A DNA stretch of 64,000 bases from an uncultured Candidatus Rokubacteria bacterium (GTDB lineage: Bacteria; Methylomirabilota; Methylomirabilia; Rokubacteriales; DASRDR01): assembly GCA_963805625.1 (NCBI GenBank), contig CAWDVE010000011.1, positions 96,001 to 160,000 on the forward strand, given 5' to 3'. The position numbers were made by a program, and so were the translations under genes. A model generated the notes under the pieces. The model was not told the DNA's origin. It saw only the letters and a program-made list of their open reading frames with translations, and searched no databases. Positions 631 to 6,804 of the stretch are shown here, piece by piece (positions within the stretch are counted from its first letter, which is position 1; each line of letters begins with the position of its first letter).

Positions 631-2400
631 GTGATCACACTCACCATGGGCGGGAACGAAACCGTCCGGCGCTGGGTGGACGACGCCGCTCGGCTGTGTC
701 GCCCCGACGACGTCGTCTGGTGCGATGGCTCCGACGACGAGCGCGAGCGTCTCACCCAGGCGGCGGTGCGGGGCGGCGAGCTCGTGCCCCTCGACCAGCA
801 GAAGCTGCCGGGTTGCTACCTCCACCGGAGCGCCCCGAACGACGTCGCCCGCACCGAGCACCTCACCTTCATTTGTTCCCGCGACCGGGACGACGCCGGC
901 CCTACCAACAACTGGATGACGCCCGCGGAAGGTTACGACCGGCTGGGGAAGGTCCTCAACGGCTCCATGGCGGGGCGGACAATGTACGTCATTCCCTTCC
1001 TCATGGGCCCGCCGGGCTCGCCGTTCAGCCGGGTCGGCGTCCAGGTGACGGACAGCCGCTACGTCGTCCTCAACATGCGGATCATGACACGCATGGGACA
1101 GGTCGCCCTCGATCACCTGGGCGGCTCCGACGACTTCACGCGCGGCCTGCACTCGACGGCGGACCTGGACGTCGAGCGGCGCTTCATCTGCCACTTTCCC
1201 GACGACCGCACGATCTGGAGCGTGGGCTCCGGCTACGGCGGCAACGCCCTCCTCTCCAAGAAGTGCATGGCGCTCCGGATCGCGAGCGACGTCGGGCGGC
1301 GCGAGGGCTGGCTCGCCGAGCACATGCTGATCGTCGGGATCGAGAGCCCGGACGGCGAGATCACCTACGTCTGCGGCGCCTTCCCGAGCGCCTGCGGCAA
1401 GACGAACCTGGCGATGCTCACGCCGCCGCCGTCGATGAAGGGCTGGCGCATCCACACGATCGGCGAGGACATCGCGTGGCTCCGGCCGGGCCCGGACGGC
1501 CGGCTGTGGGCGGTCAATCCCGAGAACGGGCTCTTCGGGGTGGTGCCCGGCACCAACTCTCACACCAACGGCAACGCCACCGCGATGATCGAGCGCGACA
1601 CCATCTACACGAACGTCGCGCTCCGCCCCGACAACACGGTGTGGTGGGAGGGGCACGACGACCCGGCGCCCGCGTCGGCGATCGACTGGCGCGGCCGCCC
1701 CTGGACGCCCCGGAGCGGCGAGCCCGCGGCCCACCCGAACAGCCGCTTCACGGTGCCGGCCACGCGCTGCCCGACGATCTCGCCGGCGTGGCAGGCGCCG
1801 GGAGGCGTGCCAATCAGCGCCATCCTCTTCGGCGCACGCCGGCGGGCTCTCATCCCGCTCGTGTTCCAGGCCTTCAACTGGCAGCACGGCACGTTCCTCG
1901 GAGCGACGCTGGCCTCCGAGACCACGGCGGCGGCCACCGGCGCGGTCGGCGTCGTGCGCCGCGACCCAATGGCGATGCTCCCCTTCTGCGGCTACAACAT
2001 GGCCGACTACTGGGGGCACTGGCTCGAAATGGGCAAGCGCCTGCCTCACCCGCCGAAGGTGTTCCGCATCAACTGGTTCCGGCGGGACGCCGAGGGGCGG
2101 TTCCTCTGGCCGGGCTACGGCGAGAACCTGCGCGTCCTCGAGTGGATCATCGAGCGCTGCCGGGACCACGGCAAGGCGGAGGAGACGCCGATCGGCTACC
2201 GCCCCCCGTCCGGTGCCATCCCCACGCACGGCCTGAACATGGCGCCCGGCACCATGCAGGAGCTCCTCCACGTCGACCGCGAGGCCTGGCAGACGAACCA
2301 CCGGAGCCAGGCGGAGTTCTTCCAGAAGTTCGGCGACCGGCTCCCGGGCGGAATCCGCGCGGAGTGGGAAGCGCTCGGCAGCCGCCTCCGGGTCCGCTGA
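631..2400 (+). CDS. pckG: phosphoenolpyruvate carboxykinase (GTP)
   Basis: GSGYGGNALL, WLAEHM, AFPSACGKTNLAM, HPNSRF, RRDPMAMLPFCGYNM, WPGYGEN motifs. Confidence 0.97.
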   Translation: MITLTMGGNETVRRWVDDAARLCRPDDVVWCDGSDDERERLTQAAVRGGELVPLDQQKLPGCYLHRSAPNDVARTEHLTFICSRDRDDAGPTNNWMTPAEGYDRLGKVLNGSMAGRTMYVIPFLMGPPGSPFSRVGVQVTDSRYVVLNMRIMTRMGQVALDHLGGSDDFTRGLHSTADLDVERRFICHFPDDRTIWSVGSGYGGNALLSKKCMALRIASDVGRREGWLAEHMLIVGIESPDGEITYVCGAFPSACGKTNLAMLTPPPSMKGWRIHTIGEDIAWLRPGPDGRLWAVNPENGLFGVVPGTNSHTNGNATAMIERDTIYTNVALRPDNTVWWEGHDDPAPASAIDWRGRPWTPRSGEPAAHPNSRFTVPATRCPTISPAWQAPGGVPISAILFGARRRALIPLVFQAFNWQHGTFLGATLASETTAAATGAVGVVRRDPMAMLPFCGYNMADYWGHWLEMGKRLPHPPKVFRINWFRRDAEGRFLWPGYGENLRVLEWIIERCRDHGKAEETPIGYRPPSGAIPTHGLNMAPGTMQELLHVDREAWQTNHRSQAEFFQKFGDRLPGGIRAEWEALGSRLRVR

Positions 2401-2474
2401 GTCCCCCCGACCCCGAACGCCCCGGGTCTACCGTCGCGTGCGCTGGCTGACCGGCCCTCGCGCCAACTCGCCGA

Positions 2475-3317
2475 TCACTCCAGCCGATAGCGTTTGCTGC
2501 GGACGAAGGCCCCGAAATCCGCGCGCTGCGGCTCGCTGTACTGCCGCGCCTTGTCCTCGGTCCAGCCGTAGCGCGCGGCGGTGCCGAAACGCTCGACCAG
2601 GCGTTGCCGCCGGTACGGGCGCTCGCGGATCCGCCGCTCGTCGTATCTATCCAGCTCCCGGTCGACCCGGGCCGTGTCGTAGCGGCCGTGGTGCACGGTC
2701 GCGCTCAGCGCAAGCCGAGGGCTGAACGGCTCGCTCGTCTCGGGCCACCCCAGGGTCAGGCCGGCGATCGGGAAAACCCAGTCCGGCAGCCCGAATCGCT
2801 CGGCAATCGCCGCCGCGTGATTGCGGATCTCGCTGATGGGACAGCTCCCGAGGCCCGCGAGCCCTGCCGCCTGGACAAACGTCGAGAGCACGATCGCGCC
2901 GTCGACCGCAGCGTTGAAGAAGGCATCGAGGTGCTCGTTCGGGAACACGCGGCCGCGTCGCTCGAACACGCGCCGGAGACGGAAGCCGTCCCCGCAGAAG
3001 ACCAGGAACTCGGGCGCGCCGGCGATCCACGGCGAGTCTGGCAAGAGTGCGTGGATCGCCGCCCGGTCCTCGCCCGACTCGACCCGGACGATGCTCGCCT
3101 GCTGCAGGTCGCTCTTGGTCGGCGACGCGAGCGCCGTCGCGCACAGGAGGCGTAGCAGCGCTGCCGGGATCGGGTCGGCACGATAGCTCCGGCAGACCGA
3201 GCGCTCGTTCATGGCGGCCAAGGCGTCGCGTCCGGGTAGGTCCTCGGCGACGTCCACCGTCTCGCCGTAACGGCGGTGGATGGCAGCGGCAATACGGGTG
3301 GAGGCCGTGGTCTTCAT
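2475..3317 (-). CDS. nitroreductase family protein (NfsA/Frp-like)
   Basis: RSVCRSY, ASPTKSDLQQASIV, GLGSCPISEIRN, LTLGWP, PRL motifs; start at MKTTAS. Confidence 0.9.
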   Translation of the reverse strand: MKTTASTRIAAAIHRRYGETVDVAEDLPGRDALAAMNERSVCRSYRADPIPAALLRLLCATALASPTKSDLQQASIVRVESGEDRAAIHALLPDSPWIAGAPEFLVFCGDGFRLRRVFERRGRVFPNEHLDAFFNAAVDGAIVLSTFVQAAGLAGLGSCPISEIRNHAAAIAERFGLPDWVFPIAGLTLGWPETSEPFSPRLALSATVHHGRYDTARVDRELDRYDERRIRERPYRRQRLVERFGTAARYGWTEDKARQYSEPQRADFGAFVRSKRYRLE

Positions 3318-3422
3318 TGCGGGACTATAGCCGGCGCCCCGCAGGGCTGACAACGGCCCGAGCGAAGGAGCGGGACCTCCGAGATTACTCCCGCGAGGGC
3401 AGGCCCGTGCGGGGGACTCCTG

Positions 3423-3605
3423 CTAGCGCCGCGAGGCGGAATCAGTCTCGCGGGCCTGCGAATCGCCCGACGACTCCCGTCCGCCGCAGGTCTTGGGCTC
3501 CGTCCCGGAGCCCGGCGCCGGGGGGCGTCAGCCGAGTCCCCGGCGCGTCAGGAGCACGAAGACGACGGTCAGCCCCACGACCGCGAGGATCTGCTCCCAG
3601 CTCAT
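3423..3605 (-). CDS. small single-TM protein, candidate selenoprotein (UGA at 3528-3530); 25 aa if UGA is a stop, 60 aa on readthrough
   Basis: ATG overlaps the upstream TGA (ATGA) after GGAGG. MSWEQILAVVGLTVVFVLLTRRGLG-UGA-RPPAPGSGTEPKTCGG...SRR-TAG; 8-bp hairpin starts 15 nt after the UGA. Confidence 0.6.
3495..3513 (-). promoter_or_regulatory. candidate bacterial SECIS hairpin of the small membrane protein
   Basis: GGGCUCCG-GGA-CGGAGCCC, perfect stem with a G-rich loop 22-25 nt after the UGA and no U-tract following. Confidence 0.45.
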
Positions 3606-4297
3606 CGGGCTACCTCCGGCTCCGCGCCGGGATCGATCGGGGCGTCTCCCGCCGCGTTGACCGCCCGCAGCACCGCGTCGACGAACTCGGCTTCGGGCAG
3701 GGCCCCCTCGAACGAGACGCGATCGTTGACGACGGTCTTCGGCACGGCCATGACCATGTAACGCTGCGCGAGATCGGGGAACTCGGTCGCCTCCACGCAG
3801 TCGCCGCGGATCCACTCCGAGGCGACCGCGAGGTGATGCGCCAGGCGCACGGCCCGGGGGCAGTGGGGTCAGGTGGGCGTCGAGAAGACCTGAATGTGGA
3901 CGCGCTCCTTGAGGCCGGCCAGGCGCTCGAGCGTCTCGGCCCCGAGGGACGGCGTGCCCGACGAGGCGACGATCATCGAGTCGATCAGGTTCGTGAACTC
4001 ATAGCCCATCGGGATCCCGAAGAACCGGATGCCGTAGTCGCGGGCGCCCTCCACGACGATCGCGGGCACGCGGTCGATCCCGTAGGCCTCCGCCCGTTCA
4101 CGGTCGATGTGGAGGTTGAGGATCTCCACGGTGATCTGGTCCGAGCACTCCGCGACCTCGCGGACCAGCCGCTCGGTCTCGATGCAGTACTCCGACGCCC
4201 CGAGTTGAGTGGAGAACACGATCAGCTTGACCGGACCCGCAAGCTTCGCGAGCTCGGTCTGGACCGCCGCCCGGTCCGGATCCGTCAGGATCGCCAT
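3602..4297 (-). CDS. selenocysteine-containing protein disulfide oxidoreductase (PDO / AhpF N-terminal-like, two thioredoxin folds), UxxC motif
   Basis: ORFs 3869..4393 and 3602..3850 are in the same frame, joined by TGA 3869-3871: VFSTPT-U-PHC-PRAVRLAH; also GIPMGYEF, VMAVPKTVVN, FEGALPE. Confidence 0.9.
3837..3862 (-). promoter_or_regulatory. candidate bacterial SECIS hairpin of the PDO gene
   Basis: UGCCCCCGGGC-CGUGC-GCCUGGCGCA can pair; loop begins 18 nt after the UGA with G at its second position. Confidence 0.5.
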
Positions 4298-4364
4298 CTT
4301 CCCTCCAGGGGGCCGTGCGTCGGCACCGCCCGCCTTGATTGTACAGGCCGGAGCCGGCCGCGCC

Positions 4365-5540
4365 TCAGGCGAGCTGCGTGAGCCCCGCGGCAATCCGTCG
4401 AAGGGCCTCGCGGATCGTGTCCCGCGACGCCGCGTAGGAGAGGCGCAGGTACCCCTCGCCGTACTCGCCGAACGCCGTCCCGCCGAGGACCGCCACGCCC
4501 GCCTGCTCGAGGAGGTGGGTGGCGATCTCCTTCGATGGACGCCCGAACGACTTCACGTTCGGGAAGACGTAGAAGGCGCCGCGGGGCCGCGCGCAGGAAA
4601 CCCCGGGGATCTGGTTCAGCCCGTCGACGACGAGGTCGCGCCGCTGCCGGAACTCCTCCACCATCGCCTGCACTGGGGTGTCGTCGCCCCGGATCGCGGC
4701 CAGGCCCGCGTGCTGGATGAAGGTCGCCGTGCAGGACACGGAGTTCGTCATGAGACGGGTGAGATGCTCGGCCAGCAGCTTCGGCATCACGCCGAACCCG
4801 AGGCGCCAGCCCGTCATCGCATAGGACTTCGAGAAGCCGTCCAGGATCACGGTCTGGGGCTTCATGCCCGGCAAGCTCGCGATCGAGGCGAACTCCCCGT
4901 CGTAGAGGAAGCGCCGGTAGATCTCGTCCGACAGCACGGGCACGCGGAAATGGCGCGCCAGCTCCGCGATGCGGCCGACGTCCTCGGGCGACAGGACGCC
5001 GCCCGTCGGGTTCTCCGGGGAGTTGATGATGATGAGCTTGGTCTTACGCGAGACGCGCCGCTCGAGCTCCCCGAGGTCGAAGCCGAAGCCGGTCTCCTCG
5101 CGGAGTGGGATCGGCACGGGCACCCCGCCCACGAAGTTGATGACCGACTCGTAGATGGGAAACCCGGGGTTCGGGTACACCACCTCGTCCCCGCGGTTCG
5201 TGAGCGCCATGATCACGAAGAACATGATCGGCTTGGCCCCCGGCGTGACGACGACCTCGTCGGGCACTACCGGCACGCCGCGCGTCTTCTCGATGTCCTC
5301 GGCGATCGCCTCGCGTAGCTCGGGCAGGCCGGCCGACGGGCCGTAGTGCGTCGCCCCCGCGTCGAGCGCCCGCTTGGCCGCCTCGCGGATGTGGGCGGGG
5401 GTGTCGAAGTCCGGCTCGCCGATCTCGAGGTGGACCACGGACTTCCCTTGGCGCTCCAGCGCGCGCGCCCGCGCTAGCACCTCGAAGGCAGTCTCCGTGC
5501 CCAGCCGTCCCATCCGCTCCGCGATCATGGATTCGATCAT
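4365..5540 (-). CDS. PLP-dependent aminotransferase class I/II (aspartate aminotransferase-like)
   Basis: LEIGEPDFDTP, INSPENPTG, SDEIY, GFSKSYAMTGWRLG, GAFYVFP. Confidence 0.95.
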   Translation of the reverse strand: MIESMIAERMGRLGTETAFEVLARARALERQGKSVVHLEIGEPDFDTPAHIREAAKRALDAGATHYGPSAGLPELREAIAEDIEKTRGVPVVPDEVVVTPGAKPIMFFVIMALTNRGDEVVYPNPGFPIYESVINFVGGVPVPIPLREETGFGFDLGELERRVSRKTKLIIINSPENPTGGVLSPEDVGRIAELARHFRVPVLSDEIYRRFLYDGEFASIASLPGMKPQTVILDGFSKSYAMTGWRLGFGVMPKLLAEHLTRLMTNSVSCTATFIQHAGLAAIRGDDTPVQAMVEEFRQRRDLVVDGLNQIPGVSCARPRGAFYVFPNVKSFGRPSKEIATHLLEQAGVAVLGGTAFGEYGEGYLRLSYAASRDTIREALRRIAAGLTQLA

Positions 5541-5557
5541 GGCCGTCGTCCCTCCTG

Positions 5558-6250
5558 CTAGAAGACGCCGAACTTCTCGTACGCTGCGAGCGGCGCCATC
5601 CCCTTGCGGACGGCGTCGCGGACCCGATTCTCGGTGTGGAGGAGCCGCTCGCACTCGAGGAGCACCGGCACCGCCAGCGCCTGCGGCACCACGGCGACCC
5701 CGTCGAGGTCGCCCACCACAACATCGCCCGGTGCGATCCGGACACCGCCGATCGTGACCGGCCGGCCCCACTCGACGACGCGCCAGCGCGGCAACGAGTC
5801 GAGCGGCGTCCGGTAGCGGCAGAAGACCGGAAACCGCTCGCGCAGGATGTAGGCCGCGTCGCGCGTGGCCCCGTCGATCACCACGCCCCGGACCCCGCGT
5901 GCCCTCATGGCCACCGCCGACAGCTCCCCGAAGTGGGCCGACACGTCGTCGTTCGACTTGACGACCAGGACGGCATCCCGCCGCACCGCGCCGAGCAGCG
6001 TCAGGAACGCCCGGATGGCGCGCTCCGGATCCGGCTTTCGGGTTGGCCGGCCGGCGGCCGGGAAGGCCAGCCCGGCGACGCGCGTGCCGGGGGTGAGCCC
6101 GACGATGTCGTGGGGCAGCGTCTGCGCGTAGCGGCCGAGGTGGTCCAGGACGTCGGTGATCGCGGCCGTGTAGAGGCGCCCGTAGCGGTTGCAGAGCTCG
6201 GACGTCGAGATCGGCCGGGTCGGGGCCCGACGGGCGCGAGGCTTGGTCAT
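5558..6250 (-). CDS. RraA / HMG-aldolase family protein
   Basis: AHFGEL, GVVIDGATRD, PGDVVVGDLDGVAVVP. Confidence 0.9.
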   Translation of the reverse strand: MTKPRARRAPTRPISTSELCNRYGRLYTAAITDVLDHLGRYAQTLPHDIVGLTPGTRVAGLAFPAAGRPTRKPDPERAIRAFLTLLGAVRRDAVLVVKSNDDVSAHFGELSAVAMRARGVRGVVIDGATRDAAYILRERFPVFCRYRTPLDSLPRWRVVEWGRPVTIGGVRIAPGDVVVGDLDGVAVVPQALAVPVLLECERLLHTENRVRDAVRKGMAPLAAYEKFGVF

Positions 6251-6357: not shown

Positions 6358-6770
6358 TGCGGCTGCCCGCTCGAGGAACTCGGCTGGGCCACGCATCTGC
6401 ACGGCGTGCTGAGCCGGGAGAAGCTCACCGCGGGCGGGATGACCTTCTATGACATCGACGTCGTGCGGGTCATGAAAAGGTGCTTCGGGGCCGCTTCGGC
6501 GGTGGTCCGACGGACTACCAGCTCGTCGAGGACGAGACTGCGTCCGGAGAGCCCCTCGTGCGCCTCTTGGTCCACCCGGCGGTCGGGCCCCTCGAGCCTG
6601 CCCACGTGGCGTAGACGTTCCTCACCGCGATCGGCACGGGCTCAGGAGTCAGGGCATCATGGGCTCCGAGTGGCGCGACGCCAAGCTCCTCCAGGTGGAG
6701 CGCCGCGCGCCGCTGGCAGGCCCTTCCGGGAAGGTCCTCCACCTCTACATCGCCATCGTCCCCGGCCGAG
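6358..6770 (+). pseudogene. decayed C-terminal fragment paralogous to the 16663..18285 PaaK-like protein
   Basis: Across frames reads CGCPLEELGW...EKLTAGGMTFYDIDVVRV / GRFGGGPTDYQLVED...LLVHPAVGP...stop / WRDAKLLQVERRAPLAGPSGKVLHL. Confidence 0.85.
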
Positions 6771-6804
6771 CGGCTAGCCGCCCGCGCAGCCCGGGGGCGT
6801 CAGG

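Follow-up and report, generated by a model that had tools for sequence, protein, structure and literature searches.

A predicted selenoprotein PDO with a single redox site and an overlapping micro-ORF in a Candidatus Rokubacteria genome

In the window, the whole 64,000-nucleotide stretch of Candidatus Rokubacteria DNA that we analyzed, table 11 translation yields two short thioredoxin-fold frames (3869-4393 and 3602-3850), and the question is whether these are one gene interrupted by a UGA that is read as selenocysteine (Sec) and, if so, what an oxidoreductase with one complete redox motif would do. The initial annotation had already joined the two frames into a single selenoprotein with a U-P-H-C motif. 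Translated with TGA as U, the minus-strand frame from 4297 to 3602 encodes 231 aa with a single internal TGA at codon 143. This TGA lies in the context F-S-T-P-T-U-P-H-C, exactly at the first Cys of a CPxC motif (3869-3871, minus strand) as had been proposed, and the first thioredoxin site reads S35-E-Y-C38, again as first described. The full-length product scores 258.2 bits in an HMM search with TIGR02187.2 PDO_seleno_TRX (cut-off 185) and aligns over its whole length with the PDOs of Pyrococcus and Aquifex, U falling on the first Cys of their second CxxC (CPYC in PfPDO). Its AlphaFold model (pLDDT 92.8) matches the PDO structures 1j08, 2ywm and 1a8l in Foldseek with TM 0.86-0.88, and AhpF N-terminal domains with TMq 0.77-0.83. 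Model and Foldseek matches together show the two fused thioredoxin folds of a classical PDO; a CxxC in each fold, as in the classical two-site form, is not present, the first site being SEYC. The protein does not have the fusion to a TrxR-like FAD domain that marks an AhpF: it scores 71 bits on TIGR03140 against a cut-off of 503, and its 231-aa frame has its own start and stop. Coordinates of all features are collected in Table 1.

Table 1. Features of the PDO locus and the micro-ORF downstream of it, in window coordinates
Feature	Position	Strand	Support
Predicted selenoprotein PDO / AhpF-N-terminal-domain homologue, 231 aa, two thioredoxin folds	3602..4297	-	TIGR02187.2, AlphaFold, Foldseek
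Shine-Dalgarno-like site GGAGGG, 3 nt 5' of the ATG at 4297	4301..4306	-	sequence
Degenerate N-terminal site S35-E-Y-C38, CxxC remnant	4184..4195	-	alignment, relatives
In-frame TGA, predicted Sec143, first residue of U-P-H-C	3869..3871	-	relative loci, alignment to PfPDO CPYC
C-terminal redox motif U143-P-H-C146	3860..3871	-	translation, alignment
Extended PDO hairpin	3837-3862	-	folding
bSECIS-like upper stem, 6 bp, 5-nt loop, G second in loop, loop 17 nt after UGA	3841..3857	-	synonymous invariance, folding
Single-pass membrane micro-ORF, 60 codons, start overlapping the PDO stop (ATGA)	3423..3605	-	profile, alignment, position
Micro-ORF in-frame TGA, predicted Sec26	3528..3530	-	class and metagenome loci
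Micro-ORF bSECIS-like hairpin, 8 bp, GGA loop, 22 nt after UGA, -14.8 kcal/mol	3495..3513	-	folding, covariation

The neighbours of the PDO gene in the window are a class I/II aminotransferase, an RraA-like gene and a nitroreductase, and no gene for thioredoxin reductase (TrxR) or peroxiredoxin adjoins it there. A sigma-70-like promoter match (10/12) lies upstream of the nitroreductase at 3324-3353 on the minus strand. The public runs closest to the window PDO are soil and sediment metagenomes, and a scan of viral contigs found no relative.

Comparison with relatives shows that the UGA at 3869-3871 is almost certainly read as Sec, and that the two short frames are almost certainly one gene. 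PDO matches are present in 56 of 61 related genomes, with TGA at the aligned codon in all 30 loci fetched, and in 95 of 151 genomes of the class, where all 100 match rows carry TGA. Among the distinct PDO sequences extracted from the class, the Sec site is TGA in 72 of 72 and never TAA or TAG, while in other phyla Cys aligns with this codon, the Cys/UGA pairing for which the initial annotation wanted a homologue alignment. It had also called for a check of the codon itself, which we carried out on assembled contigs of public runs. A DNA contig from run X1 (3613-4155), which may be the source sample, spans the codon with no differences, an RNA-library contig from run X15 spans it with five differences, all elsewhere, and in eight public runs none of the listed differences falls at 3869-3871; contigs from RNA libraries overlap the gene in part and cannot show transcription. 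The database proteins P0331, P0354, P0004 and P0003 are recorded with W or L in place of Sec or, in one order-type PDO, with Cys, which may be a true substitution or a gene caller's reading of TGA.

Methylomirabilota are recorded in the literature as selenoprotein-rich, and the genome of the window is so as well: 14 of its 30 AhpC/TSA-domain matches carry an in-frame TGA, and all 14 translate to U-motifs of the TxxU, UxxC or WxxU type. It carries tRNA-Sec (selC), together with selA over the cut-off and selD over the cut-off with a TGA of its own. The selB gene (G000:C21:223609-225488, L001) lacks one base of a C/G run when compared with three congeners; since selB is full length in 16 of the 17 matching relatives (one partial; 20 searched), this frameshift is probably an assembly error. 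Absence of selB or tRNA-Sec was named at the outset as grounds for abandoning the Sec reading; tRNA-Sec is present, and selB is present in a copy that is frameshifted in the assembly.

Decoding of the PDO UGA would proceed through SelB and a SECIS element, for which the gene offers a candidate. The foldable hairpin noted initially at 7-32 nt past the TGA is real, folding as (((..((((((.....)))))).))) at -11.6 kcal/mol, and its upper stem of -8.9 kcal/mol (6 bp, loop CGUGC, 17 nt after the UGA) has the properties given for a bSECIS in the legend of Figure 2 of PMC13188914, from which our criteria were taken. Taken alone the hairpin is not unusual against shuffles in four windows (z = -0.10, 0.86, 1.01 and -1.68), so its support is comparative, and an Rfam scan of window positions 2000-6000 gave no match near the gathering score. 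Codons +4 to +9 past the UGA show no synonymous variation across 60 distinct segments of the order, apart from one codon that is constant in 59 of the 60, while the codons flanking them vary. Folding energy over nt 12-34 averages -10.1 in 81 distinct Sec segments compared with -5.4 in 67 Cys segments, with the same direction in the three phylum samples that have Sec forms. Covariation in a fixed register gives 60.8% paired, but a slide of +1 scores equally, the register shifting between lineages.

A genuine stop codon or a sequencing error at the TGA, which would make the locus a pseudogene or a pair of unconnected thioredoxin-fold peptides, is extremely improbable. That reading could draw on the selB frameshift, on the z-scores of the hairpin and on the storage of a 142-aa fragment as a protein (92 of the best 120 database matches likewise end at the Sec position), but is contradicted by a TGA kept in every distinct sequence of the class with coding conserved on both sides, by the synonymous freeze across the hairpin, by the unchanged codon in the independent X1 and X15 contigs and by the lack of any start 5' of the U-x-x-C motif in the second half. 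Reading the UGA as Sec corrects a routine mis-annotation, those 92 matches being fragments cut at UGA.

The family itself is known. A PDO selenoprotein family is listed as predicted UxxC in Table 1 of PMC13188914 and in PMC9312934, and is also tabulated in PMC1794560, in line with the initial remark that Sec variants of PDO exist. With this TIGR02187 UxxC subfamily the window protein shares a score above the HMM cut-off, the two-fold architecture, Sec as the first residue of the C-terminal motif and a SECIS-like hairpin within the ORF. The TIGR02187 reference ABB15282.1 (deep-Sep supplement file 3) has an intact N-terminal CxxC, whereas the clade of the window has lost it throughout the order. 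We regard the window PDO as a selenoprotein of a known family and a modest single-site variant of it, with no new mechanism.

The N-terminal CxxC is kept in none of the 60 distinct PDO orthologues of the order. Position 1 of the site is S in 29, G in 17, A in 11, P in 2 and T in 1, a tally that depends on the alignment where an insertion is present, with Ser there in some families; the last position is C in 46, N in 6, S in 4, A in 3 and T in 1. Within the genus, Cys38 is kept in 9 of 14 loci and is S, T or A in the other five. Outside the order but within the class, eight sequences have CxxC alongside UxxC, so the loss occurred on a lineage that already used Sec or gained it independently. 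Sec forms in other lineages mostly retain the first site as well (CxxC in 39 of 45).

We considered a link between Sec and loss of the first site, which appeared strong in cluster representatives and failed in codon-verified genomes. Among representatives at 50% identity, the N-terminal site is lost in 18 of 56 sequences that end at the Sec position, counted by truncation and not by TGA codon, compared with 4 of 58 Cys sequences (naive Fisher p 0.0007). In the tree of these representatives, from which 130 of 430 rows were left out (both sites not scored, or part of a near-identical truncated set) and a further 56 were removed by 85% de-duplication, 13 of 16 loss clades among those listed are wholly or mostly of the Sec type, and the independent-pair test is not significant. 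A codon-verified census of four phylum samples found first-site loss in 6 of 45 Sec genes and 10 of 99 Cys genes (naive p 0.58, or 0.41 leaving out the all-Cys phylum). The full-length tree, for which 4 of 308 rows were dropped (no coverage, or S/N where Sec is expected) before de-duplication to 172, has nine loss clades, five Sec and four Cys, and here too the independent-pair test is not significant.

First-site loss thus recurs in the PDO family with or without Sec, and the pattern is one of decay of a dispensable site. The initial annotation had taken SxxC for a motif and its pairing with UxxC for something unusual; neither is supported, since under half of the orthologues have Ser and 14 of 60 have another residue for the second Cys, and since CxxC is mostly kept in Sec forms and is lost at a similar rate in Cys forms. 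A specialized SxxC site, monothiol or holding in function, that rewires an internal relay and pairs specifically with UxxC would fit the frequency of Cys38 and Ser in the order and the excess of Sec-type losses among the cluster representatives; we consider it unlikely, because close congeners swap Cys38 for other residues, the codon-verified census and the mixed loss clades show no link, both independent-pair tests fell short of significance, and not all truncations among the representatives may be TGA. Some residual role for Cys38 is possible given its retention in 46 of 60 orthologues, and the first motif of P. aerophilum PDO, although disrupted, is described in PMC1188242 as still forming a disulfide. 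A further initial claim was that an internal diselenide or selenosulfide can arise at the Sec site alone. The selenenylsulfide part stands, as the first site has a single Cys, while a diselenide is impossible in a protein with one Sec; a relay between the two sites is not shown in the PDO literature that we searched.

PDOs with related losses occur elsewhere as well. Cys-only PDOs without the N-terminal CxxC occur in the Chloroflexota sample (L231-L233, L235, L237 and L238) and also at L289 and L290. The N-terminal CxxC is also gone in two paralogues from the phylum of G167, in which the C-terminal motif moreover begins with Ser. A second, divergent PDO paralogue (L147-L150, in G102, G059, G130 and G162) has U-x-x-C, no N-terminal Cys and a covarying hairpin of its own.

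With decay of the first site as the preferred reading, the window locus is quite probably one Sec-decoded gene whose product would be a two-fold oxidoreductase, likely cytoplasmic, working via U-P-H-C alone because its N-terminal CxxC is broken. Two known systems bear on this. In the AhpF N-terminal domain, the redox disulfide is found in the second fold only. That domain (1zyn, 1hyu, 4o5q; E. faecalis 5h29/6il7) has the same double-thioredoxin fold as the window PDO, but belongs to a Cys protein fused to a TrxR-like flavoprotein, whereas the window PDO stands alone and has Sec. In its passages on the Salmonella enzyme, PMC8395237 describes this one redox disulfide, the Cys129-Cys132 centre, as reducing AhpC. 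The hyperthermophile PDOs (PfPDO 1a8l, PhPDO 1j08, AaPDO 2ayt/2ywm, ApPDO 2hls and SsPDO) share the position of the C-terminal CxxC and align structurally with the window PDO at TM 0.85-0.88 and 31-39% identity, but are Cys-only proteins with two CxxC sites, whereas the window PDO has a single site with Sec. According to the sections of PMC7465337 on SsPDO, mutagenesis showed the C-terminal site to be key for thiol transfer and both sites to be needed for isomerase activity, and electrons from TrxR reach Bcp peroxiredoxins via PDO; what PMC7278568 gives on SsPDO also underlies this model of the TrxR-PDO-peroxiredoxin link.

By analogy with the archaeal TrxR-PDO-peroxiredoxin chain and the AhpF N-terminal domain, the window PDO is likely a single-site reductase, thioredoxin-like and similar to that domain. 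Sec143 would attack disulfides of the substrate and Cys146 would resolve the intermediate, giving a selenenylsulfide that the NADPH thioredoxin reductase of the genome, found over the cut-off, could re-reduce. The N-terminal fold would then be mainly structural, with the disulfide-isomerase activity of two-site enzymes lost. Candidate substrates are cytoplasmic peroxiredoxins and the putatively cytoplasmic Sec of the micro-selenoprotein described below.

A TxxU peroxiredoxin-like gene, whose product has an apparent signal peptide by eye and may be an exported selenoperoxiredoxin, follows PDO in some families (12 of 62 distinct class loci); direct reduction of this protein by PDO is doubtful on account of the signal peptide. 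AhpC/TSA genes with F-T/S-x-G-U were seen after PDO at L028, L030, L031, L035, L042, L043, L045, L056, L058, L060, L062 and L064, and are in turn followed by genes that we take, by eye, to be gamma-glutamylcyclotransferase-like and class III aminotransferase-like.

Reviews call PDOs thermophile-specific, as in the statements on distribution in PMC7465337 and PMC1188242. Against this view of thermophile-specific two-site enzymes, stand-alone PDOs are common in a soil order as predicted single-site selenoenzymes, and would be natural counterparts of archaeal PDO mutants with the N-site knocked out. In our literature search, from which most subscription journals were missing, neither single-site stand-alone Sec PDOs nor single-site bacterial PDOs turned up as the subject of a paper.

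Downstream of PDO, and absent from the initial annotation, is a micro-ORF with one hydrophobic helix and a TGA at codon 26. We conclude from its sequence features that it likely encodes a second selenoprotein, a divergent member of the G. lovleyi-type micro-selenoprotein family. A profile of the micro-ORF finds matches at E <= 0.01 in 43 of the 151 genomes of the class, of which the weakest are probably spurious, and the best 30 class loci all have TGA, in comparison with a TGA share among stops of 2006 of 3032 in the genome. In the best 80 of 349 metagenome loci (71 distinct), which were ranked by a Cys homologue and so favour such loci, the codon is TGA in 66, Cys in 5 and TAA or TAG in none. 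A Cys lies five residues past Sec in 62 of these 66 distinct TGA loci, and 49 of the 66 have a hairpin at or below -7.5, compared with 4.7 in shuffles. Loop-anchored covariation shows compensatory changes at 7 of 7 pairs and in 0 of 500 shuffles, with 18 of the 30 loci hand-picked and hand-anchored.

At the family level, the G. lovleyi-type proteins share by eye one helix, the motif W/Y-I/V-L-P-K/R-x-G-x-x-T and then U-M/L-x-x-x-C. The window micro-ORF has the membrane helix, the in-frame TGA, the SECIS-like hairpin and a Cys homologue in common with them, but is a genus-level variant in which the helix ends RRGLG-U and both the LP(R/K)xG motif (LPRFG in the family) and the Cys five residues past Sec are missing. 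What links it to the family is its position and its alignment; the score against the profile is not independent, as the sequence itself is part of that profile. We also considered the micro-ORF as an uncatalogued family, which is ruled out by its presence in the deep-Sep supplement (Data S1). Nineteen sequences of the micro family gave no match above the cut-off in NCBIfam or Pfam, and Table 1 of PMC13188914 has no obvious row for it.

The overlap of the two genes raises the alternative that PDO is a dedicated reductant of the membrane micro-selenoprotein and not a general thioredoxin-like reductase. In addition to the ATGA overlap in the window, a strict pattern places the micro-ORF after PDO in 21 of the 62 distinct loci of the class, and at a metagenome locus (L360:1131-1990) an all-Cys PDO with two CxxC sites overlaps a Cys micro-protein by the same ATGA coupling. 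Positively charged residues follow the helix and suggest a cytoplasmic orientation of Sec26. By the same strict pattern the micro-ORF is missing at 41 of the 62 PDO loci, however, and a PDO is nearby in just 3 of 80 metagenome micro loci, the other neighbours being varied (rhodanese, TauE, DUF302, AhpC/TSA and unrelated genes); moreover, LPRFG and the Cys at +5 from Sec have both been lost in the window copy. On balance a dedicated reductant appears improbable, and we give a similarly low chance to its more specific form, in which the one-Sec-site PDO of the order and the ATGA-coupled micro-selenoprotein make up a dedicated Sec-to-Sec relay at the inner membrane face. Such a relay, if true, would be the first function for a widespread and unannotated micro-selenoprotein family. 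A general thioredoxin-like reductase remains our preferred reading of PDO, and its coupling with the micro-selenoprotein, also seen as an all-Cys pair, offers a testable lead for a family without an assigned function; the literature that we searched has no description of this pairing.

A scan for promoters and terminators between PDO and the micro-ORF gave nothing useful. Elsewhere in the window, a Pfam search of the frame at 6409-6777 returned no match; the plus-strand ORF at 6406-6800 looks ParB-like by eye, with an apparent frame change near 6560-6660.
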